The notes under the pieces are model-generated. The model had not been told where the DNA came from and made no database searches. It worked only from the letters and a program-made list of their open reading frames with translations. Positions 2,027-53,761 of a DNA stretch of 64,000 nucleotides are shown here, piece by piece; the stretch's first letter is position 1; each line of letters begins with the position of its first letter. This DNA comes from a candidate division WOR-3 bacterium (GTDB lineage Bacteria; Hydrothermota; Hydrothermia; LBFQ01), in assembly GCA_039802605.1 (NCBI GenBank), contig JBDRWW010000004.1, positions 32,001 to 96,000 on the forward strand, read 5' to 3'. Position numbers and translations under genes: made by a program.

Positions 2027-3310
2027 ATGATTTTGCTTTTGGTATCCGATATAAACGGCGATGTTTTGGGATATTATAGGTATTGTTTTGGTTGCGATAC
2101 GGCGAGATGGACATGGAACGAGGAAAGGCTTGAATTGAGGTTTTCGGGTTCATCCGATAAGGTTTCTTATGGTGCGGATTTCAGGTTTAGGGTATTCGGA
2201 ATCCCGAATATAAACGGCCTTTCGGATATACAGAGGAGGGATAAGGGTGGAATTTCTCCAATATATGTTCAACCTAGGGAGGCGTTTATTACGCTTTACG
2301 ATATACCTTTTGGCGGTTTAGAGGTTTCCGTAGGGAAAAAGGTTATATCTTGGGGGAAGGCCGACGGAATAAATCCAACATCCCAAATATCCGTTTACGA
2401 TTATGAGGATTTCTTTGACATAGGGGCAAAATTGGGAACAAACGGTATAAACATCAGGTATTCCCTTGGAAACTTTTGGGTTGAAGGGGTTTTTTCAACA
2501 TTCTCCCCAGATGCCATCCCGCCAGATCCCTATTCTTCCGTTTTCTTCTCCTCTTTTCCCGATACCATAAACATCGTTGCGTTAAACGACACCATTAATA
2601 TTCCCAAAAACGGCCTTAGGGGGCCTTCCGAATTTGCAATTAGATTTGCCGGAACCGTAAAGGGTATAGACCTTTCCCTTATATACTTTCGCGGGTATGA
2701 TGGAATACCTTATCCCAAGAGAATTGATATAACCCCTTACAACCTCATTGAAAAACAGGTTAAGATAAACCTGATTATGGAATATCCCAAGTATCATATG
2801 TTGGGTTTTAACTTCGCCTCAACCCCTTTTAATTTGGGTTTTTGGGGGGAATTCGCGCTCTTCATTCCCGATTCCTTTGAAACCCAAAAGAGGCTTTTAT
2901 TACCCGACCCCTTCGGTTTTGACTCCGTTACTCTAACATTTCAACCGAACAAACCGTTTTTAAGGTTCGTATTGGGTTGGGATTACACATTCCCAAAGGG
3001 TATATACGCAAACTTACAATACATAAGGGGATTTATAAACGAAAGGTCAGCCGACAGTTTAAGGGATTATTTTATTCTACGCATGGAAAAGACATTCTTT
3101 GACGGGAACTTAAAGGTTATGCCGGCCAACCTGCTATTAGAAGTGGGAAATTGGGGGAATATTGTGTGGATACCGGCATTTGAGTATTACCCCGTTGATA
3201 ACCTAACCGCTTCCTTTGGCGTATTGTTAATATGGGGTAAGGGGGATTCTCCGCTTGCAAGGATGGAAAAAATAGACGAAGCCTTTTTCAGGATAAAATA
3301 CAGTTTTTAA
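2027..3310 (+). CDS. Outer-membrane beta-barrel protein (DUF1302-like)
   Basis: REAFI...VGKKVISWGKADGINPT motif, C-terminal aromatic KYSF, third gene of the MMPL-LolA-like module. Confidence 0.65.
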   Translation: MILLLVSDINGDVLGYYRYCFGCDTARWTWNEERLELRFSGSSDKVSYGADFRFRVFGIPNINGLSDIQRRDKGGISPIYVQPREAFITLYDIPFGGLEVSVGKKVISWGKADGINPTSQISVYDYEDFFDIGAKLGTNGINIRYSLGNFWVEGVFSTFSPDAIPPDPYSSVFFSSFPDTINIVALNDTINIPKNGLRGPSEFAIRFAGTVKGIDLSLIYFRGYDGIPYPKRIDITPYNLIEKQVKINLIMEYPKYHMLGFNFASTPFNLGFWGEFALFIPDSFETQKRLLLPDPFGFDSVTLTFQPNKPFLRFVLGWDYTFPKGIYANLQYIRGFINERSADSLRDYFILRMEKTFFDGNLKVMPANLLLEVGNWGNIVWIPAFEYYPVDNLTASFGVLLIWGKGDSPLARMEKIDEAFFRIKYSF

Positions 3311-3355
3311 AAGAAGACCTATTGGATGAGGGTACGGCGTTAGAATTCACACCTG

Positions 3356-3856
3356 ATGAGGAGGGTGGATGAATTCATAAGTTTTTCAAGGGAAATATCT
3401 TCGCTGAGATTGAGGAGGGAGTTGGAAAGGGCCAATTTGGATTTAAAGATTTCCCTATACAACCTTTTGAGGGATTATGAGGGTTTGAAGAGGGTTATGG
3501 AAGTTAGGGTTAAACAGAACGAGGAGAGGACAAAGGAGAGGTTTATAAGGGAAATAATCCCACTCCTTGAAGATATAGACAGGCTGTTAAATCACATAAA
3601 TTCCCTTGACATTCCGGAAAACGCTAAGGAATCCGTTAAAATCATTCTCAGAAAGGTTGAGCATAACCTTAAAAACCTCGGAATAGAAAAGGTTATGCCT
3701 TCCGTAGGGGATGATTTTGACCCCTCAATATGCGAAGCCCTAACAGTGGTTAATACGGGTGATGTGCCTAAGGGTAAAATAGCGGTTGTATTCGAGCCGG
3801 GATGGAGGTTTGAGGGGAGACTTATAAAACCGGCGAGGGTAGGGGTTGCGAATTGA
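3356..3856 (+). CDS. grpE: Nucleotide exchange factor GrpE
   Basis: Coiled N-terminus; FDPSICEAL...VFEPGWRFEGRLIKPARVGVA GrpE C-terminal signature. Confidence 0.85.
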   Translation: MRRVDEFISFSREISSLRLRRELERANLDLKISLYNLLRDYEGLKRVMEVRVKQNEERTKERFIREIIPLLEDIDRLLNHINSLDIPENAKESVKIILRKVEHNLKNLGIEKVMPSVGDDFDPSICEALTVVNTGDVPKGKIAVVFEPGWRFEGRLIKPARVGVAN

Positions 3857-10908: not shown

Positions 10909-11310
10909 GTGAAAGTTGATAAAACCTTCCTCCTTAGGGGTTTGTGGGTTGTTATAGCGGCCCTTACTTTGTTATTCTTTATAATTTCCGTTATACCCAA
11001 AAATAAAAAGGAAAAACCTTATACGAGCATAACCGACGAAAAACTCGATGTGGTTGTATTAAACGGCACAAAGATGGACAAATTGGCGTATACCGTATCC
11101 CAGTATTTGAAGGGTAAAGGGGTAGATGTTATATATTACGGAAATGCCGACAGTATATACTCGCATACCCTAATAATAGACCGCAGGGATAGTATAAATT
11201 TATCTTATGCCAAGAGGGTTGCGAGGTTTATAAAAGGGAAAATCATGTATATGCCCGACCCCGATAACATCGCCCCGGTTTTCGTAATACTCGGAAACGA
11301 TTACAAATGA
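10909..11310 (+). CDS. LytR C-terminal domain protein
   Basis: N-terminal TM, then VVVLNGT...LA...L...G.DV...GNAD...VILGNDY. Confidence 0.85.
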   Translation: MKVDKTFLLRGLWVVIAALTLLFFIISVIPKNKKEKPYTSITDEKLDVVVLNGTKMDKLAYTVSQYLKGKGVDVIYYGNADSIYSHTLIIDRRDSINLSYAKRVARFIKGKIMYMPDPDNIAPVFVILGNDYK

Positions 11311-13007
11311 TAACCCTTTTAGTATCGCTTAATATAACCGACATTAGGGTTTCCGGAAACCGTTTTTTAAAAAGCGATTTTATAAAGTCCGTATTAGGTT
11401 ATAAGAGGAATTTCATTTTCTTTAAAAAATACCCAAAGTTTTCCCCTTTTGCGATAAAGAGGGGTATTGAAGTTTTGGAAGGAGTTTATACGGACAGCGG
11501 TTTTTTTGATGTCAAAATTGAATGGAACAGAAGCGTTGAGAAAAACGGCGTTGTGATATTTTTAAACATTTACGAGGGTAAAAGGTATGTTATAAACGAC
11601 ATTGTTGTTCCTGAGGATTTACGGATAAAATTTTCCCTTCCAAAGCCCTATACCATAACATATGTATCCAGCGTAGAGGAAAAAATCCTAAGTTATTATA
11701 GGAATCACGGGTATCCCTTTGTTGAAGTAAATAGGGAAGAATACAAGGACTACGAGAACAAAACCGTAAAAATCGTTTTTTCCGCTTCAAAGGGTGATAG
11801 AATAATTATTAGAAATGTAATTTGGAAAAGCGCCGACACCACAAAACCTTTAAACACCCGCTGGAAGATTTTCAAAAGGGAAATAAAGGTAAAGGGTGGA
11901 GAGTTTTTTAAGGAAAGGGATGTGGAGGAAAGCATAAGCCGTTTATACAGAACACAATTGTTTAACACCGTATTTTGGAAGCTTGAAAATGTCAAAGACG
12001 GATATGCCGACTTGGTGTTTTATGTAAAGGAAGGCCCTCCGAGGATCTTGGATTTAAGCTTTGGTTTTCAAAGCGAGACCAAGCACCCAATACTTATAAA
12101 ACTTGAAAATGTATTCCAACACATAAACCTATTCAACAACCTCCAAAGGGTTCAGCTATCTTCCTATTTATTGGTTGATGTTGCAAATACAAACCTAAAC
12201 GCTTATAACATAAGGGTCTTATATCAAGAACCATACTTTTTGGATTTTAACCTCCGTGCAAATTTTAACATTCCGGTTTTTTACGATCGTGATAGAAACC
12301 TTTTTCAATACGGATTGGCGGGGGAAATTACCAAACCCTATTTTTTTGGCGAAAATAACTCTTTAAACTTTGGGCTATCTTACGACAAAAGGAAGGCGTT
12401 ATCCGATGAACAGGGTTATGACATATTCCGCCTTTATCAAAGCGTGTTTTTTGATACCCGGGATAATATATTTGATCCGGACTTTGGGAGCTTCCTTAGG
12501 TTTGAAATTTATGAAGCGGGCTTTGGTTATTTGGGTAATTACGATTATATAAAATGGGTATCGGATATCTCACTTTATCAAAGGTTCTTTTTAAGCGAGT
12601 GGAAATGGGCCCTTAGATTATATTTTGGGGGTATTTCCCCGTATATAAGAAGCGATACCCTTCCCATAATAGACCTTTTTACCGTAGGCGGTGAGGGACA
12701 AGTTAGGGGATATGATAGGTTTTCCATAGGACCGGATTTAAAGCGATGCTATTCATACATATGTAAAGCCGGCCGGTATCCCCTTCTGTTTAATTACGAG
12801 ATAAGGAGAAAAATAAACGATTACTGGGGTTTTGTCCTGTTCTTTGATTATGGGTATTTGGATGGGGATAAGGGGTACTCCGGTGGAATGGGTATAAGGT
12901 ATTTTACACCCATAGGGCCCATAAGGTTTGATTGGGCTATAAAATTAAAGGAAAGATCTCCCACGGATAGGGGAAAGATTTATATAAGTCTAGGTCATAT
13001 GTTTTAA
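11307..13007 (+). CDS. Omp85 family protein (BamA/TamA-like) with POTRA domains
   Basis: POTRA repeats (ITDIRVSGN, GYPFVEV), GGEGQVRGY, GIRYFTPIGPIRFDWA, C-terminal LGHMF. Confidence 0.9.
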   Translation: MITLLVSLNITDIRVSGNRFLKSDFIKSVLGYKRNFIFFKKYPKFSPFAIKRGIEVLEGVYTDSGFFDVKIEWNRSVEKNGVVIFLNIYEGKRYVINDIVVPEDLRIKFSLPKPYTITYVSSVEEKILSYYRNHGYPFVEVNREEYKDYENKTVKIVFSASKGDRIIIRNVIWKSADTTKPLNTRWKIFKREIKVKGGEFFKERDVEESISRLYRTQLFNTVFWKLENVKDGYADLVFYVKEGPPRILDLSFGFQSETKHPILIKLENVFQHINLFNNLQRVQLSSYLLVDVANTNLNAYNIRVLYQEPYFLDFNLRANFNIPVFYDRDRNLFQYGLAGEITKPYFFGENNSLNFGLSYDKRKALSDEQGYDIFRLYQSVFFDTRDNIFDPDFGSFLRFEIYEAGFGYLGNYDYIKWVSDISLYQRFFLSEWKWALRLYFGGISPYIRSDTLPIIDLFTVGGEGQVRGYDRFSIGPDLKRCYSYICKAGRYPLLFNYEIRRKINDYWGFVLFFDYGYLDGDKGYSGGMGIRYFTPIGPIRFDWAIKLKERSPTDRGKIYISLGHMF

Positions 13008-13027: not shown

Positions 13028-14095
13028 ATGGTTGCACCTTTTAAAAGGAGGAAGAGCAGGGAAGTTAGAATCGGAAATGTCGTTATAGGGGGTGATAACC
13101 CCATTGCGGTACAATCAATGACAACAACGGATACAAACGATGTTGAGGCTACTATTGCCCAAATAGAGAGGCTAGTCAATGCGGGTTGTGAAATAGTCAG
13201 GGTTGCCGTTCCCTCGAGAAAAACCGTTGAACCCTTTAAAAGGATAGTTGAACATTTTAAGGGTAGGGTTCCAATAGTTGCCGATATCCATTTTGATTAT
13301 AAAATAGCCATAATGGCCGCGGATGCGGGGGCGGATAAGATAAGGATCAACCCGGGAAACATTGGGGGTTTTGACAAGGTTAAAGAGGTCATAGCGGCCG
13401 CAAAGGCAAACAATATTCCTATAAGGATAGGCGTAAACTCCGGCTCCCTTGAAATGGATCTAATTGATAAATACGGCGGGGTAAACGCCGACGCCCTCGT
13501 TGAAAGCGCGGTTAGGTGGGTAAGATTTTTTGAGGAACAAAACTTTTACGATATCGTCGTATCGGTTAAGTCCGCCTATGTTCCCCAAATGATAGAGGCT
13601 TATAGAAAGGTGGCACAACTGATAGATTACCCATTACATTTGGGCGTTACGGAAGCCGGCACTCCAAAGACCGGTATAATAAAATCCGCCATAGGTATAG
13701 GTACCCTTTTGGCAGAGGGCATAGGGGATACTTTTAGGGTTTCTTTAACCGCAGACCCAGTGGAAGAGGTTAGGGTTGCTTGGGAAATACTAAAATCCCT
13801 ACAACTCAGGACAAGGGGTATAATGCTTATAGCATGCCCAACCTGTGGTAGAACAAAGATAGACCTCATATCCCTTGCGGAAAAGGTAGAAAAGGCTCTG
13901 GATGGGGTTAATAAGAACTTGAAGGTTGCGGTTATGGGTTGCGAGGTAAACGGCCCGGGCGAGGCTAGGGAGGCGGACATAGGCATAGCGGCGGGTAAGG
14001 GGCAGGGAATACTCTTTATCAAGGGGAAACCCGTAAAAAGGTTAAAGGAGGAGGAGCTGTTAGACGCTTTGCTTGAAGAGATAGAAAAGCTATGA
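13028..14095 (+). CDS. ispG: 4-hydroxy-3-methylbut-2-en-1-yl diphosphate synthase
   Basis: PIAVQSMT, VADIHF, RINPGN, CPTCGR, VMGCEVNGPGEA. Confidence 0.97.
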   Translation: MVAPFKRRKSREVRIGNVVIGGDNPIAVQSMTTTDTNDVEATIAQIERLVNAGCEIVRVAVPSRKTVEPFKRIVEHFKGRVPIVADIHFDYKIAIMAADAGADKIRINPGNIGGFDKVKEVIAAAKANNIPIRIGVNSGSLEMDLIDKYGGVNADALVESAVRWVRFFEEQNFYDIVVSVKSAYVPQMIEAYRKVAQLIDYPLHLGVTEAGTPKTGIIKSAIGIGTLLAEGIGDTFRVSLTADPVEEVRVAWEILKSLQLRTRGIMLIACPTCGRTKIDLISLAEKVEKALDGVNKNLKVAVMGCEVNGPGEAREADIGIAAGKGQGILFIKGKPVKRLKEEELLDALLEEIEKL

Positions 14096-15270
14096 TTTTG
14101 GTAATCTTGTGTCAGCTCTTAATGGGTCAAGGTGGGGAAAGAGGTGAAGGAATATCAATTGAGCAGCAAACCGGAAAGGTAAGGTATCCGTTCTCGGCAA
14201 CCCCGACCATATACGACACCCTAAGGTTTCGTTCTATTATAACAGAAAAGGGCTTTATAATACCCCCAAAGGATTATACGTTTTTACCCGGTGATATTGT
14301 AGTTATTAGGTTGTCCGGCGATGTACCTTACGAATATTCTACCGTAATAGATTATAGTGGCAAAATCCCCATATATCTACCTACGGGGAAAACGGGCTTT
14401 TCTGTTGAAATTGCAAATATACCCTACGATTCCCTATTGAACTACTTAAATAGAATTATCGAGAAGCGATTGAGGAACTACAAAGTCAACGTATTTCTAA
14501 AACTACCGTCAATTTTCCCAGTTAGGTTTGAAGGTGAGGTTGTTAATGTTATGGATATTTATGTTGACGGTTTAACGCGTTTGCACGATGCTTTAAAATA
14601 CATATCTTTAAAACCCAACGCATCGAGGGATAGGTTTTTAATAACAATTGGGGATACCGGTTTTTTGGTGGATTTAAGGAATCTGTTTGAAAAGGGGGAT
14701 TTATATTCAAGCCCACTATTAAAACCCAATATGACAATTGGTGTTTTATCCGATTCGTCCTTTTGTACGGTTATGGTAGAAGGTTTTCAAAATGTTAATT
14801 GCAGCGAAGGGGAAAGCGTTATATCCGTTTTTAGAAAGGCAACCTTTATGAACCCCGTTTATAAACCCATAGGTTTTGCCGTTAAAAGAAGGGGTTTTGA
14901 ATTTACCAATGGCGATTATGCCGTTAAAGTAGGGGATACTATTTTCCCCATTTTTGGAATGGATAGCGTGTTCGTTTCCGGTTATGTGAATAAACCCACA
15001 ACGGTTGCATATGTCCCAATGGCAACGGTTGCATATTATGTATCGCAGGCGGGGGGTTTTAGGGATAACGCAACTATTGGGAAATATCTCCTCATTTCAA
15101 AGGATGGTAAAGAAAAAACCGTTGATGACACCTATATACCCATGCCGGGTGATGTTATATATGTAAAAAAGTCGTTTATAACTTTGAGGGAATTTTTGTT
15201 TTATACATCCTCGCTTGTGGGTATGACCGCCGCTTTATTGAATACATACCTAATTTTAAGAAGCAGATGA
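14092..15270 (+). CDS. Polysaccharide export protein with SLBB domains (Wza/KpsD-like)
   Basis: DYTFLPGD.V, V.GYVNKP, YVSQAGGF, PGDVIYV; C-terminal TM. Confidence 0.75.
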   Translation: MILVILCQLLMGQGGERGEGISIEQQTGKVRYPFSATPTIYDTLRFRSIITEKGFIIPPKDYTFLPGDIVVIRLSGDVPYEYSTVIDYSGKIPIYLPTGKTGFSVEIANIPYDSLLNYLNRIIEKRLRNYKVNVFLKLPSIFPVRFEGEVVNVMDIYVDGLTRLHDALKYISLKPNASRDRFLITIGDTGFLVDLRNLFEKGDLYSSPLLKPNMTIGVLSDSSFCTVMVEGFQNVNCSEGESVISVFRKATFMNPVYKPIGFAVKRRGFEFTNGDYAVKVGDTIFPIFGMDSVFVSGYVNKPTTVAYVPMATVAYYVSQAGGFRDNATIGKYLLISKDGKEKTVDDTYIPMPGDVIYVKKSFITLREFLFYTSSLVGMTAALLNTYLILRSR

Positions 15271-16316
15271 TATTTTTAACTTTGTACTTTCAGGATAGTA
15301 CGGGTGGCATATTCATAGTACCGAAGGATTATACCATAAACCCTGGGGATTTGTTAAGAATATCCATATACTCCAAAAGCGTTAAAACCTTGGATTATAC
15401 GGATTATGTCGATAATGATGGCTTTTTTCCGCTTATATTTTCCCCTAATTCAAAACCCGAAAGGGTAAAGCTTTTAGGTTTAACGCTTGATTCCGCATCA
15501 AAAGTTATACTTAACATGTTCAGAAATTTCGTTAAAATAAAAGGCATTGATGGGGTTTCCGTAAACCTTGTAAAACCATCGGAGTTTTATGTGTATATTT
15601 ATGGAAATGTGCAGAAATCCGGCCCATTAAAGGTTAATTCCTTAACCAGATTGTCCGATGTTATATTCAGCGAAAATGTTTTACCGTTTTCAGCATTGAG
15701 TAGGGTTGTTTTAAACGGCAATGTTTTATCCATATGGAGGGGCTTGCGCGGGGATATTAAAAACAACCCCTTACTTAAAAATGTGGATAGTATATTTGTT
15801 CCAAAAACCGATAGCGTGGTTTATGTTGTGGGATATTTAACCGATGGTTTTATAAAACCTGTTGAATATAATTCCGGTGATGATGTTTTTACGATAATTT
15901 GGAAAATTGGTTATGGGAAGGATTTGTATAAAATATTTAAGGCCTTTATAAACGGCAAAATTGCGGATTTAAACGATAAAGTCTCGCCAGGAGATACCAT
16001 AAGTTTAATGATTTTCCCGAATTATGTTATAGTGGTTGGTGAGGTTTCAGAACCTAAGCGCGTGGAGTATCAACCGGGTTTAACGGTTTTGGATTATATA
16101 AACCTTGCCGGAGGCTTTTCTGATAGGGCGGATAAGAGAAGGATATCTATAAAAATGTTTTGGAATAATAGAACAAAAAGGGTTCCTCTGGATTATAAAC
16201 CCATGCCCGGAGATGCGATATATGTTCCAAGAGTAATTTTAACATATCAGGAGATCCTTTCCACATTATCCTTTATTTTATCGGCTACAACGCTATACTT
16301 TGTAATTACCAAGTAG
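15267..16316 (+). CDS. Polysaccharide export SLBB protein, tandem paralog
   Basis: PKDYTINPGD, VVGEVSEP, YINLAGGFSDRAD, PMPGDAIYVP; same architecture as the preceding gene. Confidence 0.75.
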   Translation: MIFLTLYFQDSTGGIFIVPKDYTINPGDLLRISIYSKSVKTLDYTDYVDNDGFFPLIFSPNSKPERVKLLGLTLDSASKVILNMFRNFVKIKGIDGVSVNLVKPSEFYVYIYGNVQKSGPLKVNSLTRLSDVIFSENVLPFSALSRVVLNGNVLSIWRGLRGDIKNNPLLKNVDSIFVPKTDSVVYVVGYLTDGFIKPVEYNSGDDVFTIIWKIGYGKDLYKIFKAFINGKIADLNDKVSPGDTISLMIFPNYVIVVGEVSEPKRVEYQPGLTVLDYINLAGGFSDRADKRRISIKMFWNNRTKRVPLDYKPMPGDAIYVPRVILTYQEILSTLSFILSATTLYFVITK

Positions 16317-26832: not shown

Positions 26833-26833
26833 T

Positions 26834-29800: not shown

Positions 29801-29860
29801 ATGACCAAAAATTATATATTCTTCATAGATTGGGATGTGCTGGATATTTTGGTTAAATAG
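26834..29860 (+). CDS. SF1B (UPF1/DNA2-like, AAA_11/AAA_12) helicase with a long unknown N-terminal region (1008 aa)
   Basis: GPPATGKT (about 28460), TPTNKAAD, IIDEASM, GDPEQL, QHRS, ISPYGAQ, TVHGFQGDE, NVGISRAK; SD AAGGAGGT within the end of the upstream gene. Confidence 0.88.
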   Translation: MSWQNTIQWLKDKTVKMDIKDNDEILELLSKCLNSQGQNQNIVVPVLTQKNGILAYRFEEIKTNDDYIFYTDEDLNSLGLDENVLLQSLNNTKLVWAGKDNQSKNWKSLLDNQKDINSLVQPSKNHLDSNLPNDVLNNNNINNIYIYDGRIYLNIKGVDIPSNKNHIPLNGNNLYKNDNEFKDIWDYIGQNLYPDFSPDDSSINSSLDAEVVKEYMKQKKKDIIIFNGSIKIKDKNGKIYTISKDEVVFGNAVYYKDLLTCKTKNNITYNDPITFAIQNNIFTPNVIIQGFNKNNASAFLQQLQKHKVEVLKVIEGKVENLSHNKLSIELTVEWLFWATIWEYLETYITPRKLKITSNYIYYENQNKIVIPMDYKVGIEEIEIKYLELYLLGNVKLYSANQGIDNLGWNNDGLALQIQPNWTGGDIPDKLNCGGASYDLAINNKGEIVVKNNPQLSGIGTINGVQVKVNNGKVEMHNNKPIPLKIFAKIEYNASQIFRDIVVNYFSGIINTSVWQSKISEEIAKIINQAPNNGNQSNPPFVWGPPATGKTTYLANRIIDYLNNGKKVIALTPTNKAADVLIERILSENPSANAYRFPNTRSNNPNVHQKILRRDGSPPSPPYAIITTIHRFIFDSIQNQKLESLDWDVVIIDEASMVELPFVFYVIHSYINSYINKKVELIIAGDPEQLTPVGKTPGEKRNIKGYSTENIYTVLDLTFNNVNINRNNTRVNVGVKSFQVIPYTHKINNQNINVIILTEQHRSVQEIGEVYSRYRYGGKLTHTRGSSSGKITINFYNNQITISPITVIEFDISSSSGIPTSPNDIGKLEYSSYHLFSAVLAVELAKELENQLRDYNIGIISPYGAQVKIMRQLAGPYSLSLTRTTVDTVHGFQGDERDIIILVMNPPSQKPGPHSHFNNHRIVNVGISRAKDFLIILKPAIITNSEIDNALSHARSLPKINSNIVNQINNKIEIFSHLEVNLYSQSLLSSMTKNYIFFIDWDVLDILVK

Positions 29861-33440: not shown

Positions 33441-33482
33441 TCGCGGTTGAATTGGTAATCATACACCCTTAGAATATCAAAT

Positions 33483-35009
33483 ATGATATGGTTGGTATCG
33501 TTTACATTCAGCATTTGGAAATCCTTGGCGGGTGATAATAAAAATCAGGCGGTTCAGGTATTAGCAGGGGGAATATTATCACCAACCGCAAAATGGAGGA
33601 CGAACTTTGGTTTTGATATTGTAAACCTTCTATGGGCCTCGCCCGCTATATGTAATGTTTCCAATGCATACCCCGAAAATGAGGTGATAATAAAAGGGCA
33701 TATATCACTGAGTGGAAATACCACACTATATGCCCTAAGGGGTACAGACGGTACCATACTTTGGAGTATTTCATTTTTTGGTATGGATCCTTCAAGCCCC
33801 GCCTGTGGAGACCTTGACGGCGATGGGTTGGATGAGATTGTAACGAAGACTTTCTCGGATGGCTTAAAGGCTTTGGATAATGATGGAACGGTTTTATGGA
33901 CATTCCCAACCACCTATTCCTTTTCAAGCCCCAAAATAGAGGATGTCGTTTCTTCAAGCCCGGGTCCTGAGGTTATATTTATGGATCCAAGCGGTGGTAA
34001 TTTGGTCTTGTATGTCTTATCGGCGAGTGGAACCCCTATATGGACGGCTAATGTTGGAATAGCCGAACAACCCGCTGCAACCCCGGCCATTAGCGATATA
34101 GATGGTGATGGGGTTAAGGAAATAATAATAGCAACCCTTTACAGCGGTTTAAGGGTATATGATGGACAAACCGGAACGCTTGAATGGTCGTATTTCGCTC
34201 TGGCCATAAATCCAACACCTTCCGTTATTGACCTAAACAACGATGGTATTGAGGATATATTGTTTTCCAACAGTTCAACCATAATGGCCATTAGTGGAAC
34301 GGGAACATTTATGTGGTCTTTTAATTTAAGAGCCCATACCCCACCTTCCGATACCCATGTGGTACTTATGGAATATGTTGCTCCGGTATGGGATATAAAC
34401 GGTGACGGATTTCCCGAGATATGGCTCGGAGATGGTGGGGATTCCTCAAATGTAAATAGCCACTTATTAAGAATTGATCAAAACGGCTCTTCGGCCTCAA
34501 TCAACTGGTTATATGGGATAAATCAGTGGGCCTATGACGGTGGAGGGGGGCTTGTTGATATAAACAACGACGGTATATGGGATTTTATAAAGGCGGCGGA
34601 TAACGGGTATGTTTATGCGGTAAGGGCGGATAACGGAACACCTGTTTGGAATTTTAGGTTTGACAATTGCGGTTCGGGTGTTATAGATCCATCGGTTGCA
34701 ATAGGGGACATTGACGCGGATAACTGTTCAGAAGTGGTAATAATAGGTTGTCAGAGCAGCTTCTTAGGGGGAAATATAGTGGCCGTGGCAATAGACAACT
34801 CTACACCGGTTTCGTCCTGTGCCGTCCTCTCCCGTGATGATGAGCTAAAAGCTTCCGAAATGAAACCTTATGAAGGTGGGGAATTCAAGGTATATACCAC
34901 AAGCGGTAGGCTAATGGGTACCTTTAAACCGGGTCAAAGGATTAAACTCAAACCCGGATTTTATATAGTTAAAATGGGAACAAAAACCAAGGGTGTGCTT
35001 GTAAAGTAA
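33483..35009 (+). CDS. Secreted FG-GAP/PQQ-like beta-propeller protein with a T9SS-like C-terminal tail
   Basis: Repeated D[LI][DN]GDG..EI motifs alternating with G...W.F; tail VYTTSGRL...KPGFYIVK. Confidence 0.8.
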   Translation: MIWLVSFTFSIWKSLAGDNKNQAVQVLAGGILSPTAKWRTNFGFDIVNLLWASPAICNVSNAYPENEVIIKGHISLSGNTTLYALRGTDGTILWSISFFGMDPSSPACGDLDGDGLDEIVTKTFSDGLKALDNDGTVLWTFPTTYSFSSPKIEDVVSSSPGPEVIFMDPSGGNLVLYVLSASGTPIWTANVGIAEQPAATPAISDIDGDGVKEIIIATLYSGLRVYDGQTGTLEWSYFALAINPTPSVIDLNNDGIEDILFSNSSTIMAISGTGTFMWSFNLRAHTPPSDTHVVLMEYVAPVWDINGDGFPEIWLGDGGDSSNVNSHLLRIDQNGSSASINWLYGINQWAYDGGGGLVDINNDGIWDFIKAADNGYVYAVRADNGTPVWNFRFDNCGSGVIDPSVAIGDIDADNCSEVVIIGCQSSFLGGNIVAVAIDNSTPVSSCAVLSRDDELKASEMKPYEGGEFKVYTTSGRLMGTFKPGQRIKLKPGFYIVKMGTKTKGVLVK

Positions 35010-39482: not shown

Positions 39483-40832
39483 ATGAAAAGGTTTTTGGTT
39501 TTATTATCCTTAGGCCTATTTCTAATATATGGATGTAAGAAGGCCGGTCAGGAGGTATTGGAGATCAAAAAGGGTAAGATAGAAGAGGTTATAATAAATG
39601 TACATCCCGCCCTCGGTATAGTGAATCCAAAGGCTTTGGTATATTTACCACCAGATTACGACCCAAACAAGAAATATCCGGTTATTTATATGCTCCATGG
39701 GTTTGGAGGTGATTATAGGACATATGTGTATTACAACGGGGTTAATGAGATACTTGACTATATGATTTCCACCGGGCAAATGGACCCGGTTATAGTTGTT
39801 ATGCCCGATGGTAGAAACCTCGTAGGCGGTTCATTTTATACGAATTCAAGGCTTTATGACCCTTCAAGTCAAACATATATGCCATTAACGGTATTCGGGG
39901 ATTACGAAACATATATGATAGACAGCTTGGTTGCGCAAATAGAAAGGAAATATCCCGTTAAAGGTGGTAGGGAAAATAGGGCTATTATGGGTTTGTCAAT
40001 GGGCTCATACGGTTCGGCAAAACTATGGTTAAAGCACGCGGACATGTTTGGAGTTGTCGCTTTACATTCGGGTCCATTGGCGTTTGATATGTTAATTGAC
40101 GAAAATGTTGTTGATAGTTTGTTAAAGGATTTTGAGGAAATAGGTGGTAAAAAACTCTGGATAAAGGATTACCTTGGAAGGGAACACCCCTGGCTAACCC
40201 TCGGCAACGGTTTGTCCGCGGCCTTTACCCCAAGGGTTGTCCCTTATAGCAACCCCACAGATTGGAGGGTCATACAGAACTGTTATTATCCGGGGGGTTT
40301 GGATTCCATAAACGGTGATTTCCTGCTTGATACCATGTTTATACCATCCTTTGGGATAAAGGTTTGTGTTGGTGTAAGGTTTCCAATGAGGTGGGATACA
40401 ACGGGTCCTTATGCCTCATGCCTAACAACCGAACAGCAGGCCAAGCCCAACGCAAAGATGATATCCGAGGATTTTTGCGTTTGGAAAAAGTATCACGATC
40501 CATACACATTAATAGATTCCGCGGAGATTAATTTCCCAACGGAGTTTAGAAATACAAAGGTTTATATTGATGTGGGGTTAAAGGATGAACTAACCCTTTT
40601 GTCCCATAATAGAAAGTTTAAGGATAAGCTAAGGTCCAAGGGTTTAACAAACATCGTTTATGTTGAATTTGATGGCGCTTTGGGTTATCCAGCCGAACTC
40701 TTCCCCGGAAAGCACAGCAATTGGCTTTATGCGAGGCTGAAGAAATCCTTCACATTCATAAACAGGGCGTTCAAAGGCGAGGATATAAAAGCCGGTGAGT
40801 ATAAGCAGTACGAAGGAAAAGACTATGAGTGA
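39483..40832 (+). CDS. Lipoprotein alpha/beta-hydrolase (putative esterase)
   Basis: Lipobox IYGC; VYLPPDY...[19 protein letters not shown] nucleophile; start reassigned to ATG 39483. Confidence 0.85.
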
Positions 40833-41307
40833 GGTTTATAAGGTTTTGAAAGAAAGTTTTGGCGAAAAAATAGGGCCGGAGATAGAGGATAGGGGTGAAA
40901 GGAGCATATATGTTGATAGGGATGTTATAGTTGATGTTATAAGGTTGTCCAAAGAGGCATTGGGTTTTGATATGATAATATACATTACCGCCGTTGATTA
41001 TCTGGATTGGAAGCATAAAAGACCCACAAACAAAAGGTTTGAGGTGGTTTATAACCTCTACTCCACGCAGAGGAGGGAAAGGATAAGGTTTAAGGTGGCA
41101 GTTGATGAAAATGAGGATATTCCTAGTATAACGGGTGTTTTTAAGGGTGCCAATTGGATGGAAAGGGAAGTCTATGATATGTTCGGCATAAAGTTCTCGG
41201 GTCATCCCGATTTGAGGAGGATTTTACTCTGGGAAGGGTTTCCCGGCCATCCGCTTAGAAAGGACTTTTCCGAAAGGAGATTTGTTCCAATACCACCCAA
41301 CGAGTGA
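40825..41307 (+). CDS. nuoC: NADH-quinone oxidoreductase subunit C
   Basis: [42 protein letters not shown]...GHPLRKDF. Confidence 0.92.
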
Positions 41308-42059
41308 TATTATTATTGGCCTTTGACAGTTTAAGCGTTGATTCTCTGTGGAAAATTGCAAAAAAGTGGCGTGCGGGGTATGATGTTGCTATTGTGGATT
41401 CCGCGCGGGATAGAATAATTTCCATAGGTGAAGGGGCGATTTTTTATATAATAAAAAAGCACATATCAAAGAAGGATAGGCTTGGGGTAAGGGCTGTAAG
41501 GGATATGTGTTTAAAAAAACCGGAATACTGCACAAGGGGTATATCTTACCTCTTGGATTTAAGGGATACAATAGCCCTTAAAAATGCCCTTTATGTATCC
41601 TCGGAGGTGAAAATACCGGGTTTGGAGGGAAAACTCCTAGATGTTTTAAAAAGGCAGAAAAAGGGCCCTTGGATAAGCAGAACTTTAAGGGCTATATATA
41701 AATCGGGTGATGATAGGGTTTGTAATGTATTGAAGGGTTATTTAAATCATCCTTACGAGTATGTTAGGATGAGGGCGGCTTTGTTGGTGGGAGAAAAGGG
41801 GTGTATAAAACTCAAAGGTTATATGTGGAAGATGATGAAGGATAGCGTTTTTACCGTTAGGGATGCCGCCAAATTGTCCTTGGCGAAACTCGGGTTTTCA
41901 TTAAACGAATTTGAAAAAAACATAGAGAAAATCCCCGATTACGAGGTTATGAAACTCCTATATATGAATTGTCCTTCGGGAGATTACCTAAGGGTTGCCG
42001 AAAAGAATGTCGATAAAAGGATTTTCAACACTTGGATAGATTTTATAAGTTGCAAGTAG
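41304..42059 (+). CDS. HEAT-repeat protein
   Basis: [17 protein letters not shown] and [15 protein letters not shown] repeats. Confidence 0.65.
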
Positions 42060-43390
42060 GGAAAACGGCGGGTAATGTATTAAAGGTTTTTTCCGGACAA
42101 AGCTTATCCTTTGTCATAAACACATTCACGGGTTTTTTACTCCTCCACTATTTAACACCCGATGATTTTGGGCTTTATAGTGTCCCAGCGGATTTCATAA
42201 ACATGGTGGTTTTGGGGGTTTTATCGCTCTTTACAAACTTAAACCAAAAGTTCATATCGGAATACCTCGGAAGGGGCGAGGTAAATAAGTTAAAGGGGGT
42301 TCTATGGTTGTCCCTGCTATACTTTTCCGCTTGGGGTATTATATTCTCTGTGGTTTTTTTAGCCTTTGCGGAGTACATATCGGAATACATTATGAGAAAT
42401 CCGGAATACTCATACCCTTTACGTTTATATTCGTTCGGAATTCCTTTTTTGGCCTTATCCCTTTACATGTCTTCGGTTTTAAACGGTTTTGGAAAATTTA
42501 GGGAATTAGCCTTAAACGATGTAATTATACCAACGGTTTCAAGGGCAATTTTTTTGGTAATCCTATTACCCCTTTACCCATTAAAGGTTTTTGTCGCCAT
42601 ATTCTCCACAAACATAAAGTATTTTGTGAATTTCTTGAGCAATTTATGGGTATCTTGGGGGGTGTTAAGGAAAGTGTTTTTCGGGCAAAAGGAATACGAC
42701 TTTAAATCTTGGCTTAGGTATGGGATTCCGATTTGGTTGAAGTATTGGTTAGGACTTATACAAAACAACATAAAACCGGTTCTTGTGGGTTCCTTTGTTG
42801 GAGTATTTTCCGGGGGTGTTTTTAAAGCCGCCTCTTTGATTTCAAGCGGGGTATATATCCTTGAAGTATCGGTTTCAAATGTCCTTTTCATAGAGTTGAG
42901 TAAGGAAATTGGAAGGGGAAACTTTTTTAATTCGGCTTTGAGGATTAGGGGTATAACCCTTAAAATGTCCGCCATTATGGGTGTATTTTCTTTAATATCC
43001 GCAGTTTTAGGAGTATTGGTTTTAAGGTTTTTCGGTAAGGGTTATGAGGGAGGGGGAATAATATTATCCGTGATTATCTTGGGGTATTATATAAATTCCC
43101 TTTCTGGGATTTGGCAGGCATTTTTACAAGCCTCGGGGAGGTCGGATATGGTATTTTTAATATCTTTGGTGTATTCCGTTGTAGACATTGGTTTGGTCTT
43201 GATGCTTATAAAACCATTGGGGATACTGGGGGCAGCTTTATCCTTTCCTATATCCGCCGTGTTAATAACCCTTTTGAGGTTTTATTTGTTTTATAAAATA
43301 AGCGGTGTTAAACCTATGGGATTAAAAACGCTTATTCTATCTTCCACCTTCGTAGTACTGTTCTTGATAATCATACCCGTAATCGCATAA
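42032..43390 (+). CDS. Polysaccharide flippase (Wzx/MOP superfamily)
   Basis: About 12 TM; LTPDDFGLYS, LQASGRSD, LIKPLGILGAA. Confidence 0.85.
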   Translation: MDRFYKLQVGKTAGNVLKVFSGQSLSFVINTFTGFLLLHYLTPDDFGLYSVPADFINMVVLGVLSLFTNLNQKFISEYLGRGEVNKLKGVLWLSLLYFSAWGIIFSVVFLAFAEYISEYIMRNPEYSYPLRLYSFGIPFLALSLYMSSVLNGFGKFRELALNDVIIPTVSRAIFLVILLPLYPLKVFVAIFSTNIKYFVNFLSNLWVSWGVLRKVFFGQKEYDFKSWLRYGIPIWLKYWLGLIQNNIKPVLVGSFVGVFSGGVFKAASLISSGVYILEVSVSNVLFIELSKEIGRGNFFNSALRIRGITLKMSAIMGVFSLISAVLGVLVLRFFGKGYEGGGIILSVIILGYYINSLSGIWQAFLQASGRSDMVFLISLVYSVVDIGLVLMLIKPLGILGAALSFPISAVLITLLRFYLFYKISGVKPMGLKTLILSSTFVVLFLIIIPVIA

Positions 43391-44488
43391 TCCTTCCAAC
43401 AAGCCCTTAATCCTATTTTCAAAAGCCTCTATTTTTACCTTGGAATAATCCGAATATATCTCAAAGTATTCGGCAAAACTTATTCCACCCCCCTCGTAAA
43501 ACCTCTTGGCAGCATTTATAAGGTTTTTGTAATGTAATATATCCCTTTCTGGTCTAGAAATTTTAAAATTTGGCTCCAAGTTTTGCAAATTCCCCTTTAT
43601 GGTTTCCAATCTCTTTAAAGAGTGTGCGGCCTTGGAATATAACCTCTTCGTTTCATCAAATTCAAAAACTACCCTAAAACCCACAACCGTTGAAGGGGTG
43701 GTTATGTTCCCGTTCCAAACCTCACCGAATAGGTAAAGTTTTGGAAACCACCATAAGGATTCCGCAAAAGCCTTATAGTTTAAGGCTTTAATCTTTAAGC
43801 TGTCAGAGGATTTTGCGCATTGGGGCTTAAAGTTTTGATTAAGTTCCAGGCCTTCAAGGGTTATATCCAAAAGACTTTCAAGAGAATCCTTCAAGGATTT
43901 TTGGGTTTTTATGAAATATTCCCTTAAATCCTTTAAACCTTCAACTTCCCCCTTTATCCTTTCAAGCTTATAACCTTCCAGTCTTTTTAATCCCCCAAGG
44001 GTATCAAGTTTTACCAATAATTCTTCGCCCAAACTTATAAGGGAATCCAATACGCTTATTACACTGTCCAGATTTATCAAAATCCTGAGATAAACCCTTA
44101 AATTGTTTTTAACATTTTCCTTTAAGCCCTCTATCTTTGAATACTCCCATTCCCTCATATACCGGGAAGATTTTATTGCAAATATAACCTGAGGGTTTAA
44201 CGGATTCCAATAAAAACCAAAGCCCCATCTCCTCCAAAAGGGGTAGCCAATTTCAATCTCCCTCTCCGTAAGCCTGAGGTTTACGGTATCGGCATATTGA
44301 ACCCTTATAGTGGGCAAAGGCGATATGTTAAATTCATCGTAAAATAGATACAGTTTTGGGAATAGGTATCCCTTTGGAATATCGTAGATAGCCTTCAAGT
44401 CGGAATAAACCCAAAAAGTTTTGCTCTCAAAAATCCTGTCAAAGACCCTTAAAATACTGTCTTCCGTGATGGAAAGTATGAAGATCAA
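43337..44488 (-). CDS. Hypothetical exported protein, possibly TolC-like
   Basis: Repeated FPKLYLF segments with helical coiled regions; RFYEGGGISFAEY resembles the TolC C-terminal motif. Confidence 0.45.
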   Translation of the reverse strand: MIFILSITEDSILRVFDRIFESKTFWVYSDLKAIYDIPKGYLFPKLYLFYDEFNISPLPTIRVQYADTVNLRLTEREIEIGYPFWRRWGFGFYWNPLNPQVIFAIKSSRYMREWEYSKIEGLKENVKNNLRVYLRILINLDSVISVLDSLISLGEELLVKLDTLGGLKRLEGYKLERIKGEVEGLKDLREYFIKTQKSLKDSLESLLDITLEGLELNQNFKPQCAKSSDSLKIKALNYKAFAESLWWFPKLYLFGEVWNGNITTPSTVVGFRVVFEFDETKRLYSKAAHSLKRLETIKGNLQNLEPNFKISRPERDILHYKNLINAAKRFYEGGGISFAEYFEIYSDYSKVKIEAFENRIKGLLEGLCDYGYDYQEQYYEGGR

Positions 44489-45060: not shown

Positions 45061-45612
45061 ATGGTTAAATCGGATAAGTGGATAGAAAAAATGGCCAAGG
45101 AATACGGCATGATTGAACCCTTTGAACCAAGCCTTGTTAGGGATGGAAAAATATCATTTGGTTTATCATCTTATGGCTACGATATAAGGGTGGCCGACGA
45201 GTATTATATATTTACCAATGCTTATATGACCGTTGTGGATCCAAAAAACTTTGACGAAAGGTCTTTTGTATATCACAAGGGGGATTATTGCATAATACCA
45301 CCGAATTCCTTTTGCCTCGCCCGCAGCGTTGAATATTTTAGAATCCCAAGAAATGTTATAGGTATATGCCTTGGGAAATCAACATATGCAAGGTGTGGAA
45401 TAATCGTCAATATTACACCCCTTGAACCGGAATGGGAGGGGCATTTAACCATAGAAATATCCAACACAACCCCATTACCCGCAAAGATATACTCATACGA
45501 AGGTATAGCCCAATTGATATTCATAGAAGCCGATGAGGTTTGTAGGGTTAGTTACGCGGATAGGAAGGGCAAGTATCAAGGGCAAAAGGGTATAAACCTT
45601 CCGAAGATATGA
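45061..45612 (+). CDS. dcd: dCTP deaminase
   Basis: [34 protein letters not shown]. Confidence 0.96.
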
Positions 45613-46064
45613 AAAAGTGGGTAATATTGGGTGAAAGGACTTATGAGGTTGATACATCAAAGGAAAATATACATTTTGTTGAGTTGGATAGGGGTATAAA
45701 CCTCGCCTTTATAGACGGAAAACCCATTGTTTTCAGGGTTAAAGCTTATGGAAACTCGGGGGAAATAGAAACCCCTTTAATACACGCCGAATTCAAAACA
45801 TTTAAATCCCTACCCAAGGATTTCTCGGAGGAAAAGACCGCTATGGTTCAACAAATAAAATCCCCTATGCCCGCTTTGGTTGTGGAGGTGAATAAAAATG
45901 TTGGGGATAGGGTTCAAAGGGGTGAAACGGTTATAACAATTGAGGCTATGAAGATGAGAACCCAATTAAAGGCAAAAATTGAAGGTGTCGTCAAACATGT
46001 ATATGTTTCCAAAGGGGTAAATGTTGGCAAGGGGCAACTTTTAGCGGTCATAGAAAGGGAATAG
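45609..46064 (+). CDS. Biotin carboxyl carrier / biotinyl-domain protein
   Basis: SPMP...VGDRV..G...IEAMKM biotinylation motif. Confidence 0.9.
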
Positions 46065-46096
46065 ATGTTTTTCATACCGTGTAACAAGTACCTCTT

Positions 46097-46311
46097 CCGT
46101 TTATGTGCTTTTGAACCATTTTCCCTATCCTTTCCCAAACCCTTAATCTCCCCCAATACTTTACCTGACGCTAAGCCCTTTGAAATAAACAAAGCTTTCA
46201 AGGCCCCCAAAGCGCCGAGATAAGCAAAGTCAATATAACGGCCAACCCTTTTATCAATCCCAGCCTTTTTTAACCTTTCCTCGGGTGTTAATGCCTTTAT
46301 TTTAAGGTTGC
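46097..46311 (-). pseudogene. Heavily deleted duplicate of the adjacent DUF5618-like gene, including its promoter
   Basis: Collinear blocks shared with 46312-46790: ttattttaaggttg, taacctttcctc.ggtgttaa, ccctt(t)tatcaat, aaacaa.gc.ttcaaggc, tccctatcctt, ccgtttatgtg. Confidence 0.75.
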
Positions 46312-51276: not shown

Positions 51277-51719
51277 TGAGGGTTATGGGTTTAGACCCGT
51301 CGCTTAGGGCTACCGGGTGGATAGTGATAGATACGGATGGGTTAAAGGCTTTGGGTTGGGGTATTATAAAAACGAAGGGGAACTTAAAGGGGAGCCTTGT
51401 AAAGATAAGGGATAATTTAAGGGATATTATTAAAGAGTTCTCGCCGGACAAAGCGGTTATGGAGGCTATAATATATCACAGAAATCCAAAAGTGGCTATA
51501 ATGCTCGGTGCGGTTAGGGGCGTTATCCTTTTAACATTGGAAGATTTGGGTATTGAAGTTATAGAATTACAACCCACAAAGATAAAACTGGGAACCACAA
51601 GGTATGGATTGGCCAGTAAAGAACAGGTGGCAAATGTGCTAAGAAATGTTTTTTCATTGCCCGAGGTGGAGGACCACATAACTGATGCCCTTGCCGCGGC
51701 ATATTACCTTGTAAGGTGA
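51276..51719 (+). CDS. ruvC: Holliday junction resolvase
   Basis: MGLDP, E, ASKEQV, DALAAA; yebC-ruvC-ruvA synteny. Confidence 0.93.
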   Translation: MRVMGLDPSLRATGWIVIDTDGLKALGWGIIKTKGNLKGSLVKIRDNLRDIIKEFSPDKAVMEAIIYHRNPKVAIMLGAVRGVILLTLEDLGIEVIELQPTKIKLGTTRYGLASKEQVANVLRNVFSLPEVEDHITDALAAAYYLVR

Positions 51720-51722
51720 GAA

Positions 51723-52301: not shown

Positions 52302-52310
52302 GAACCCCCA

Positions 52311-52329
52311 AATGTGGTAAAACCACATT
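52311..52329. promoter_or_regulatory. Perfect inverted repeat abutting a -10 box (operator or hairpin)
   Basis: AATGTGGT-AAA-ACCACATT, then TATAAT(52329-34)-N8-ATG. Confidence 0.55.
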
Positions 52330-52342
52330 ATAATATATTCTT

Positions 52343-53761
52343 ATGATAGCCATAATAATTGCGCAAAGCTGCATAAACATTTATGGGATTAATAGGTTGA
52401 CTAACTATTCGGGCCACGACTATTGGGGGTCTGATGGCTACTTAATATCGTCTAGTTTCTTCAACGAGAGGACACCCCAAAGCCTGTATATAGTGGGTGA
52501 TACGGTGCATATCTTATGGGTAAGGCAAGGTGGAGGGAATAGGTATAACAGGTCAAGGGATAGGGGTGCAACATGGGATTGGTGTACGGGTTCGGACTGT
52601 CATGGCGTGCAGGTACTAAATTACGGTTGGGAATCCTCTATCGTTGCCCGATATTCAAAAGTTCATGCAACATCGTACTGTTGGGATTGCTCTCCCTCTT
52701 CATGGGTTCCGTATAACAGGTCATTAAATAACGGAACCAGTTGGGATTATCCGTCATCCGGTCAAAATATATTTGCGGCTTCCGAGTACGGACTTGGGGC
52801 GAGAAGTTTGGATTCCCCGGCCATGGACGCTACTCAAAGTGGTGATACCGTACTGCTTGTTGTTGATGCCTATTCCCAAGGCGTTAGGGTTAAGAGAACT
52901 TTTGATGGTGGAACCACTTGGGGCCCTTACGGGGGAATAGTCGTGGCAACGCCTTCTTATACCGGAGAAAGGCATCCACAAATGGCGTACAATAATGCCG
53001 GTAAATTTTATGTTTGTTATACGGATTTCCCCTATGTTATGGTAACATACAGTGTGGATTACGGAAGCACTTGGAGTGCCCCTTATCCCCTTGATACATT
53101 ATCGGTTAATTTGGGTTATAATTCCTGTCATATATCCGCGGATGGGAATTTCGTAAGCGTTGTATGGTTTGATATGAAAGGGAATGCTATAAATGTGTAT
53201 TATAGGGAATCCGTGGATGGTGGGCTAACATGGAGGCCAAAGGTAAATATTACGGGTTTAACCTCAGTAGGTGATACCGCCGCGGGTGCAACCGTTGTAA
53301 ATCACGGATATATTACATACATAACGTGGTTTGAGCGTTCTTCAAGGACCGGTGGTGACTTTGAGATTATGGAGGTTTGCAAGCCCCATCCGGATTCCTC
53401 TTGGTATCCCGTTCAGAGGATAACATACATAGGCGGTAGGTCCTTGTGGCCTATGGTTGCGTATAATTGGTCTGGGAGATGGGGAATAATATGTTGGCAG
53501 GATAACGCACCGGGGAACTACGAAGTTTATTGCTCGTCATTTATACCCCTACTTGGGGATACAACCCTGGGTTATAAAGAAAATCCGTTAAAAGAAAACC
53601 CATTCACGGTAAAAGGTAATTTGTTAATCCTAAACGGGGAATATGAGGTTTTTGATGTTAATGGTAGATTAAGGGCGAAGGGGGAAGGTGGGAGTTTGAT
53701 GTTGAGAAAAGGTATATACTTCATACGGATAAAGGGCAAAACATATAAAGTTAAATTATAG
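52343..53761 (+). CDS. Secreted BNR/Asp-box (sialidase-like) propeller protein with a T9SS-like C-terminal tail
   Basis: Five Asp boxes (SRDRGATW, SLNNGTSW, TFDGGTTW, SVDYGSTW, SVDGGLTW); tail VFDVNGRL...KGIYFIRI. Confidence 0.82.
   Translation: MIAIIIAQSCINIYGINRLTNYSGHDYWGSDGYLISSSFFNERTPQSLYIVGDTVHILWVRQGGGNRYNRSRDRGATWDWCTGSDCHGVQVLNYGWESSIVARYSKVHATSYCWDCSPSSWVPYNRSLNNGTSWDYPSSGQNIFAASEYGLGARSLDSPAMDATQSGDTVLLVVDAYSQGVRVKRTFDGGTTWGPYGGIVVATPSYTGERHPQMAYNNAGKFYVCYTDFPYVMVTYSVDYGSTWSAPYPLDTLSVNLGYNSCHISADGNFVSVVWFDMKGNAINVYYRESVDGGLTWRPKVNITGLTSVGDTAAGATVVNHGYITYITWFERSSRTGGDFEIMEVCKPHPDSSWYPVQRITYIGGRSLWPMVAYNWSGRWGIICWQDNAPGNYEVYCSSFIPLLGDTTLGYKENPLKENPFTVKGNLLILNGEYEVFDVNGRLRAKGEGGSLMLRKGIYFIRIKGKTYKVKL

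Follow-up and report, generated by a model that had tools for sequence, protein, structure and literature searches.

Signal peptides are counted among the best-characterized sorting signals. Those of the classical Sec/signal peptidase I (SPI) type consist of n-, h- and c-regions, an architecture regarded as universal, and span approximately 18-30 amino acids (aa). In engineered Escherichia coli signals that lack the n-region and carry polyleucine cores, the loss of charge is offset by a longer core; in such constructs, a hydrophobic core alone can drive Sec export, albeit with reduced efficiency. Here we analyze a 64 kb stretch of DNA (hereinafter the window; positions 32001-96000 of contig C4 of assembly G000, 1.65 Mb in 23 contigs, 90% complete) from a bacterium of the genus Candidatus Caldipriscus, which the NCBI taxonomy assigns to Candidatus Caldipriscota, that is, WOR-3. 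An earlier note on the window had called attention to very short hydrophobic N-termini that appeared to replace classical signal peptides on exported proteins. We conclude that these N-termini are probably real, much reduced Sec-type signal peptides and the main signal on the non-lipoprotein envelope proteins of G000. Caldipriscus is described as an abundant member of Yellowstone streamer communities at ~80 °C (PMC4791363, PMC11696919).

Similarly to classical Sec/SPI signals, the short form places an N-terminal hydrophobic core on periplasmic, outer-membrane or extracellular proteins, a small residue often separates its core from the apparent mature protein, and it aligns with the last ~7 residues of the classical signals of homologues; SecA, SecY, YidC and a canonical LepB are all encoded in the genome. 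The differences are that the short form lacks a basic n-region, comprises only ~7-10 residues, has a c-region of 1-3 residues and frequently contains Trp at position 3. Compared to the engineered minimal signals of E. coli, which are laboratory constructs, the short signals have shorter cores and would be the natural default of a proteome. A search of the literature on short or minimal signal peptides yielded nothing comparable in bacteria, and four papers (PMC12285271, PMC12542636, PMC11696919, PMC4791363) use neither "signal peptide" nor "leaderless" in their main text.

The starts of the eight genes cited in the note are fixed by upstream stop codons together with a Shine-Dalgarno site or a leaderless-type -10 box (Table 1). 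As the note maintained, none of the eight open reading frames (ORFs) has an earlier in-frame start: all begin where they had been placed, and the open frame upstream, which extends over 12, 39, 15, 114, 24, 45, 30 and 9 nucleotides (nt), respectively, in order of position, contains no ATG, GTG or TTG. Four of these starts lie in 4-nt NTGA overlaps with the preceding gene. An initial Met codon, claimed for all eight, is found in six, whereas the genes at 41304 and 44488 (minus strand) start with GTG and TTG, respectively. The -10 boxes invoked to pin three of the starts do so at 33483 and 52343; at 44488, the pinning is weaker because only TAAACT (4/6 matches) is present upstream. The assignment of the eight proteins to the exported fraction is supported by envelope-type Pfam matches for six and is only putative for those at 41304 and 44488. 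In the Omp85 protein, the Pfam POTRA match starts at residue 10, in agreement with the position proposed previously, and both lipoproteins used as controls (39483 and 63302) indeed retain classical signals. The orthologue of the barrel at 2027 in a related genome (G002) begins MLLLLVSD.

Table 1. Short N-termini, start-associated elements and contrast cases in the window
Feature	Position	Gene	Strand	Comment
Shine-Dalgarno site GGAGGTGA	2015..2022		+	4 nt 5' of ATG 2027; overlaps stop codon of preceding LolA-like gene
MILLLVSD codons, DUF1302-like outer-membrane barrel	2027..2050	2027-3310	+	Pfam E=1.3e-5; in-frame TGA 12 nt upstream
MITLLVSLN codons, Omp85/POTRA protein	11307..11333	11307-13007	+	4-nt ATGA overlap with preceding LytR_C gene
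MILVILCQ codons, SLBB-like protein	14092..14115	14092-15270	+	SLBB below curated cut-off; ATGA overlap with GcpE gene
MIFLTLYFQ codons, SLBB/Poly_export (Wza-like) protein	15267..15293	15267-16316	+	ATGA overlap with preceding gene
-10 box TAGAAT	33470..33475		+	7-nt spacer to ATG 33483; leaderless-type start
Codons for MIWLVSFTFSIWKSLA (N-terminus read as MIWLVSFTF), FG-GAP/PQQ_2 BamB-like propeller protein	33483..33530	33483-35009	+	Pfam
Classical lipoprotein signal	39483..39536		+	18 residues; contrast case
VILLLAFD, GTG start, weakly HEAT-like protein	41304..41327	41304-42059	+	Weak HEAT matches only; export putative; NTGA overlap with preceding gene
LIFILSIT, TTG start	44465..44488	43337-44488	-	383 aa; no family match; start and export uncertain
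-10 box TATAAT	52329..52334		+	8-nt spacer to ATG 52343; TAA of box is in-frame stop
MIAIIIAQ codons, BNR-like protein	52343..52366	52343-53761	+	Weak BNR match
Classical lipoprotein signal MLGRFLLILPFIFAC	63258..63302		-	Contrast case

The pattern extends over the whole genome. The gene set built in this analysis contains 1572 genes at 95% coding density (table 11), with the start of each gene chosen heuristically by a -10 box or a Shine-Dalgarno site; within it, proteins were assigned to a short-start set if residues 2-7 were uncharged and averaged 2.0 or more in hydropathy and if the first polar residue came no later than position 14. This set comprises 139 of the 1572 proteins (8.8%), each with Met followed by at least 6 uncharged hydrophobic residues, compared to 771 of the 21884 internal in-frame start codons (3.5%). 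The uncharged run after Met is 6-8 residues long in 94 members, for a total signal of ~7-10 residues, and 9-13 residues long in the other 45. More generally, no Lys or Arg (K/R) precedes 186 of the 430 N-terminal hydrophobic stretches in G000. Among 1572 N-termini, 43 carry M-[ILMVF]-W, compared to 24 of 6758 internal Met residues, a 7.5-fold enrichment, and 25 of the 139 short signals, such as that at 33483 in the window, have Trp as the third residue, against a background of 1.3%. In classical signals of G000, Trp is likewise common directly behind an initial MKR or MR. The "MI" start emphasized in the note does not hold up as a motif: residue 2 is Ile in 43, Leu in 34, Val in 19, Met in 15 and Phe in 10 of the 139 proteins. 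Given that an NTGA overlap with the preceding stop forces a second codon starting with A, and that 18 of the 43 Ile-2 cases are such 4-nt overlaps, Ile-2 is in part a by-product of gene overlaps; among leaderless genes, Leu-2 (26) is more frequent than Ile-2 (9).

The set was compared with the established signal types. It lacks a positively charged n-region, by definition, given that residues 2-7 are uncharged in all 139 genes, and the length of its h-region is at or below the lower end of the usual range (~7-15 residues). The twin-arginine motif of Tat signals is missing, no Arg or Lys preceding the core; TatC is encoded in G000. The hydrophobic run of 6-13 residues is followed by globular domains (POTRA, SOD, propellers), unlike type IV pilin signals, in which a short charged leader with Gly at -1 precedes a hydrophobic helix of ~20 residues with Glu5; and there is no lipobox. 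We also considered whether extra hydrophobicity compensates for the reduced length and rejected this possibility in view of the lower Kyte-Doolittle values of the short cores (given below).

That the actual proteins are longer and carry normal signals, concealed by a non-canonical start, read-through, a frameshift or an assembly error, seems very improbable. There is some room for such errors, with at least 10 open upstream codons in 58 of the 139 genes, GTG or TTG starts in 28, and start picking that is heuristic. However, the upstream open frame is closed by an in-frame stop within 30 nt in 85 of the 139 genes; all three kinds of stop codons are involved and the coding density is normal. Furthermore, a Shine-Dalgarno site (28 genes) or a -10 box 6-9 nt before the start (67 genes) is located immediately upstream, and independently assembled genomes of many species share these short starts although their upstream stops lie at different positions. 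Since TGA is among the upstream stops of several genes, an alternative genetic code was considered as well; it was rejected given the use of all three stop kinds and the coding density under table 11. The -10 boxes are themselves positioned narrowly: in 417 of 1567 genes, a TAnAAT box is separated from the first start by 6-9 nt, compared to at most 30 genes at any other spacer, and a looser rule captures 515 of 1572. Accordingly, about one third of the G000 genes look leaderless, compared to 6-13% in four other WOR-3 genomes. In the window, examples of genes with a TAnAAT-type box are those at 5624, 13028, 30456, 33483, 35035, 44534, 45061, 52343 and 58645.

The short N-termini are tied to families of exported proteins. 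We compared Pfam matches for 138 of the 139 members of the set (E<=1e-6) with those for 138 controls (E<=1e-8), each the nearest neighboring gene with an unremarkable N-terminus, and tallied the categories by hand. In the short-start set, 50 proteins belong to the envelope or are exported, 13 are cytoplasmic, 9 are multi-pass membrane proteins, 19 are ambiguous and 47 match no family; the respective numbers for the controls are 7, ~79, ~7, ~8 and 37. The odds ratio for 50/13 versus 7/79 is 43 (Fisher test, p=7.6e-20), and five of the "exported" or ambiguous control genes are likewise hydrophobic at the start, falling narrowly below the threshold. Thus, the pattern is not equally common among cytoplasmic proteins, a result that the note would have taken as a refutation, and short hydrophobic N-termini do sit on proteins that must cross the inner membrane. 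The set includes SprA, a 776-aa BamA, a second Omp85, SurA, two TolC-like OEPs and a TonB-dependent receptor; LolA and LolA-like proteins, a DsbA-like protein, Cu/Zn-SOD, PCuAC and a cytochrome c; and two amidases, SLT, M23, two C25 and two S8 peptidases. The claim that proteins with a C-terminal domain (CTD) of the type IX secretion system (T9SS) share the pattern is borne out as well: among 19 proteins that match this domain (PF18962), 14 have a short start, 3 have a classical signal and 2 are ambiguous, and above the curated cut-off the proportion is 8 of 11. In Cu/Zn-SOD, residue 25 of the query aligns to residue 12-13 of mature SOD1, leaving ~12 residues before the fold, so that, judging from this alignment, there is no room for a normal signal.

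An explanation in which these N-termini are not targeting signals at all, with the proteins taking another route or using an internal signal and the pattern following from composition or from constraints on leaderless mRNA, also appears to be very unlikely. Leaderless-type genes are indeed overrepresented in the set (48% versus 33% genome-wide), and the 13 cytoplasmic proteins are clear-cut enzymes that share the pattern. Against this explanation stands the strong association with exported families; genes led by a Shine-Dalgarno site and operon-internal genes also show the pattern, whereas leaderless cytoplasmic genes mostly begin with MK or MR. Moreover, non-WOR-3 homologues possess a classical signal at exactly the same position, before POTRA1.

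The short N-termini are also conserved in the lineage. In all 11 full-length family-level loci, the Omp85 orthologue reads M-[IF]-x-L-[LFW] from the earliest ATG in the open frame; this ATG is followed by no more than scattered GTG or TTG codons, and the upstream in-frame stops shift between loci. The six orthologues of the protein at 52343 begin with Met and 6-8 hydrophobic residues followed by [ASG]-Q-(x)-C; in each, the frame is closed by a stop 3-15 codons upstream, and five of them have a TATAA-type box that ends 9 nt before the ATG; the conserved Cys, 1-2 residues after Gln and preceded by Q, S, A, G or N, was not read as part of a lipobox. Four distant outgroup Omp85 loci (22-24% identity) had flanks too short to include the N-termini, and a search for BamA homologues was used instead. 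Among the 23 closest (35-90% identity), 21 begin with Met or Leu followed by hydrophobic residues without K/R, with 7-22 residues before POTRA1 and only 7-10 in 12 of them; one homologue is named "candidate division WOR-3". In BamA of named Zixibacteria, Latescibacteria, TA06 and Sabulitectum, the signal is mostly of the classical kind and 17-30 or more residues long, the exceptions being two Zixibacteria entries with 14 residues and no K/R. When the N-termini of BamA from 40 genomes of 28 families were inspected by eye, short signals without an n-region were found in many WOR-3 families, with the 7-8-residue extreme in f1, f2 and f5. Hence the proposed lineage specificity stands: BamA signals without a basic n-region occur across WOR-3, are mostly absent from named neighboring phyla, and are most extreme in the Caldipriscus family.

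At the scale of the phylum, we applied the same pipeline to ~313-400 kb sampled from each of four other WOR-3 genomes. The fraction of short starts, the share of hydrophobic stretches without K/R and the median residue at which the stretch ends are 8.8%, 43% and 11 in G000 (family f1); 5.1%, 36% and 15 in G020 (f4); 5.0%, 34% and 14 in G093 (f25); 2.1%, 21% and 17 in G052 (f14); and 0.9%, 10% and 14 in G105 (f17).

The boundary after the short core looks like a cleavage site, to judge from its composition. Gln, which accounts for 1.8% of residues, is the first polar residue in 37 of the 139 members of the set; among all starts, it is in this position in 44 of 185 without K/R and in 21 of 196 with K/R, against a background share of 5.5%. 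Examples in the window are the proteins at 14092, 15267 and 52343. The c-region of a classical signal has small residues at -1 and -3 and is cut by SPI. In a less probable scenario, the short starts are export signals that SPI does not cleave and that are either retained, being too short to anchor the protein, or trimmed by another protease; we consider this unlikely, but several facts speak for it. The entire segment of 7-9 residues has about the length of the part of a signal that lies in the LepB groove, which leaves no membrane-spanning helix. Many of the N-termini also lack a small residue or Gln at the boundary, the first polar residue being D, E, N, K, R or H in 95 of 139. Conversely, the boundary shows a 4-5 fold enrichment of Gln, with S, A or G directly before it in 23 of 44 cases; the same ...A-Q boundary is seen in classical signals of G000; and orthologues differ in their hydrophobic residues but retain the Q boundary, as is usual for evolving cleaved signals.

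The Gln boundary resembles the Q-rule of Bacteroidetes in that Gln directly follows the hydrophobic segment more often than expected and T9SS cargo is present as well. The Q-rule, whereby Gln at position +1 of SPI substrates is cyclized to pyroglutamate, is described as specific to Bacteroidetes, with an average frequency of ~71% (PMC5837995, PMC10653852). In contrast, the organism analyzed here belongs to WOR-3 and the frequency of Gln is about a quarter. A plant-type glutaminyl cyclase (PF05096) was not found in G000, and the M28 family is represented by one strong match, a 551-aa peptidase, and a second one barely above the cut-off (24.7 bits); the role of the 551-aa peptidase is unclear.

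Other signal types coexist with the short form in the same genome. Lipobox-like motifs were detected at 51 starts, in which the n-region is basic and the core is long and ends in Cys; these lipoprotein (signal peptidase II) signals are, like the short ones, N-terminal hydrophobic export signals of the Sec route but differ from the short set, which lacks a lipobox, in all these features. Classical SPI-type signals number ~25 that are clear by eye and up to 65 under a looser filter, and 13 classical-type signals end in ...[AGS]-Q, with boundaries of the types ...FA-Q and ...YA-Q. Given the persistence of classical signals, the cell evidently still reads them.

As regards the export machinery, G000 encodes SecA (L055:11780-14713), SecY (G000:C2:107416-108426, minus strand), YidC and LspA. 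LepB is present in a single copy of 223 aa with one membrane segment and a near-full match to Peptidase_S26 (E=2.3e-45, profile positions 3-167 of 168), and the Ser and Lys boxes typical of the family can be read in its sequence. Since this LepB looks canonical, the adapted peptidase proposed in the note is unsupported.

Under the interpretation that we favor, that of reduced Sec-type signals, Met1 would be followed directly by a hydrophobic core of ~5-9 residues and then by 1-3 boundary residues, without a basic n-region, and the signal would serve outer-membrane barrels, periplasmic chaperones and enzymes, and T9SS cargo, whereas lipoproteins and a minority of other proteins would have retained classical signals with MKR and a long core. 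Export would proceed post-translationally via SecA/SecYEG, a route suggested because no signal recognition particle (SRP) was found (see below). The only positive charge would be the free amino group of Met1, which is taken to be retained because residue 2 is bulky in most cases. Cleavage by the single LepB would probably occur where the core ends, in many cases just before Gln, as also seems to be the case for the classical signals of G000. The lipoproteins plausibly keep long signals because Lgt and LspA would act on a membrane-held precursor.

Several considerations weigh against this interpretation. With 6-8 residues, the core does not exceed, or falls short of, the lengths that are functional in E. 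coli signal-peptide studies, and the mean Kyte-Doolittle hydropathy of the set is 2.77 (residues 2-7), compared to 3.2-3.3 for the best 6-residue window of classical and lipoprotein signals. The 13 cytoplasmic contaminants (SurE, MiaA, PurF, GT2, IspDF, SucD, AlaDH and others) start with a Rossmann beta-1 strand, and the gene calls, the starts and the exported or cytoplasmic labels used throughout are crude or hand-made. Transcription starts were sought in two raw-read metatranscriptomes, from which 0 reads mapped to the window.

An additional feature of the lineage is what looks like a natural loss of the SRP pathway, commonly held to be universal, in the taxonomic class of free-living thermophiles to which Caldipriscus belongs, as judged from profile searches. 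Among 31 genomes of this class, three of which are rated 100% complete, the Ffh M domain (PF02978), ffh (TIGR00959, above ~21 bits) and the small SRP RNA (RF00169) were each found in none, compared to 14, 14 and 12 of the 14 controls, respectively. In G000, ftsY (TIGR00064) and the large SRP RNA (RF01854) gave no match and PF00448 scored only 20.8 bits; a tblastn search of this genome with WOR-3 Ffh yielded a best E-value of 2.1, compared to 1e-135 for the positive control. In a sample of 121 genomes from the phylum, ffh and/or ftsY-type matches were detected in 80 but in none of the families of the same class (0 of 23), nor in f12, f24, f25, f27 and f33; most other WOR-3 families possess Ffh, FtsY and SRP RNA, and the RNA was present in three Ffh-positive genomes and was not found in two Ffh-negative ones. 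Absence from incomplete genomes is no proof, but the three SRP components co-vary across dozens of assemblies. No paper in the library searched connects SRP with WOR-3 or its synonyms. Suppressor strains of E. coli are reported to bypass SRP when translation is altered (PMC7844537; preprint PMC8299109). The similarity is that cells can live without SRP; the difference is that here the loss is apparently natural and involves whole families and a class of free-living thermophiles.

It might be suspected that the short, charge-less signals are a consequence of the loss of SRP in this lineage, an idea that fits the lack of detectable Ffh, FtsY or SRP RNA in the class and the shares of stretches without K/R in the genomes compared above (43%, 36% and 34% in the three without SRP versus 21% and 10% in the two with SRP). 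This five-genome comparison is, however, small and phylogenetically non-independent, and the BamA signals from the 40 genomes tell against the idea. A short BamA signal that lacks an n-region or has a single Lys is found in 13 of 20 SRP-less genomes, all 13 inside the class, and in none of the other 7, which belong to families f12, f24, f25 and f27; among SRP-bearing genomes, 9 of 19 have such a signal, in families f14, f15, f20, f23, f28, f30 and f32. Hence the trait does not track SRP status, and causation by SRP loss, unsupported by these counts, appears improbable. A broader proposition, that in the Caldipriscus/EM3 class of WOR-3, which comprises free-living diderm thermophiles, most envelope proteins are exported via charge-less signals of 7-10 residues without any SRP, is a possibility that we regard as rather doubtful at present.

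Should this broader proposition be correct, targeting and gate opening would follow a mode outside textbook models, possibly with SecA or ribosome-bound SecYEG/YidC reading the first nascent residues, and signal peptidase would act on substrates without a membrane-spanning helix. A lineage with charge-less leaders of 7-10 residues on BamA, SurA, TolC, SprA, LolA and most T9SS cargo would lower the known natural minimum for Sec signals and reveal which parts of a signal are dispensable. In practical terms, much of the WOR-3 secretome, indeed most of it, may escape prediction tools and gene callers. The apparent natural loss of SRP, in turn, bears on the indispensability of SRP in free-living cells. 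A cultured relative, strain sy37, has been described (PMC12285271), and therefore both the short signals and the loss of SRP can be tested at the bench.

Several further observations concern individual regions of the window. A small membrane-anchored LytR_C protein (10909-11310, plus strand) is translationally coupled, through the ATGA overlap, to the Omp85 gene with the short signal; in several family-level relatives, the frame 5' of the Omp85 start is likewise open and encodes a similar peptide, consistent with conservation of the LytR_C-Omp85 pair. Short metatranscriptome contigs from two RNA libraries (Logan) match the window at 99-100% identity (33839-34077, 39708-39941, 45603-46125 and others); they place the organism or its RNA in those samples and carry no transcript ends or strand. 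Two adjoining giant ORFs of 1244 and 1008 aa, both with strong Shine-Dalgarno sites, occupy 23098-29860 (plus strand); this region has the lowest GC content in the window (0.30 at 24001-28000 versus ~0.40 elsewhere) and may be a foreign island.

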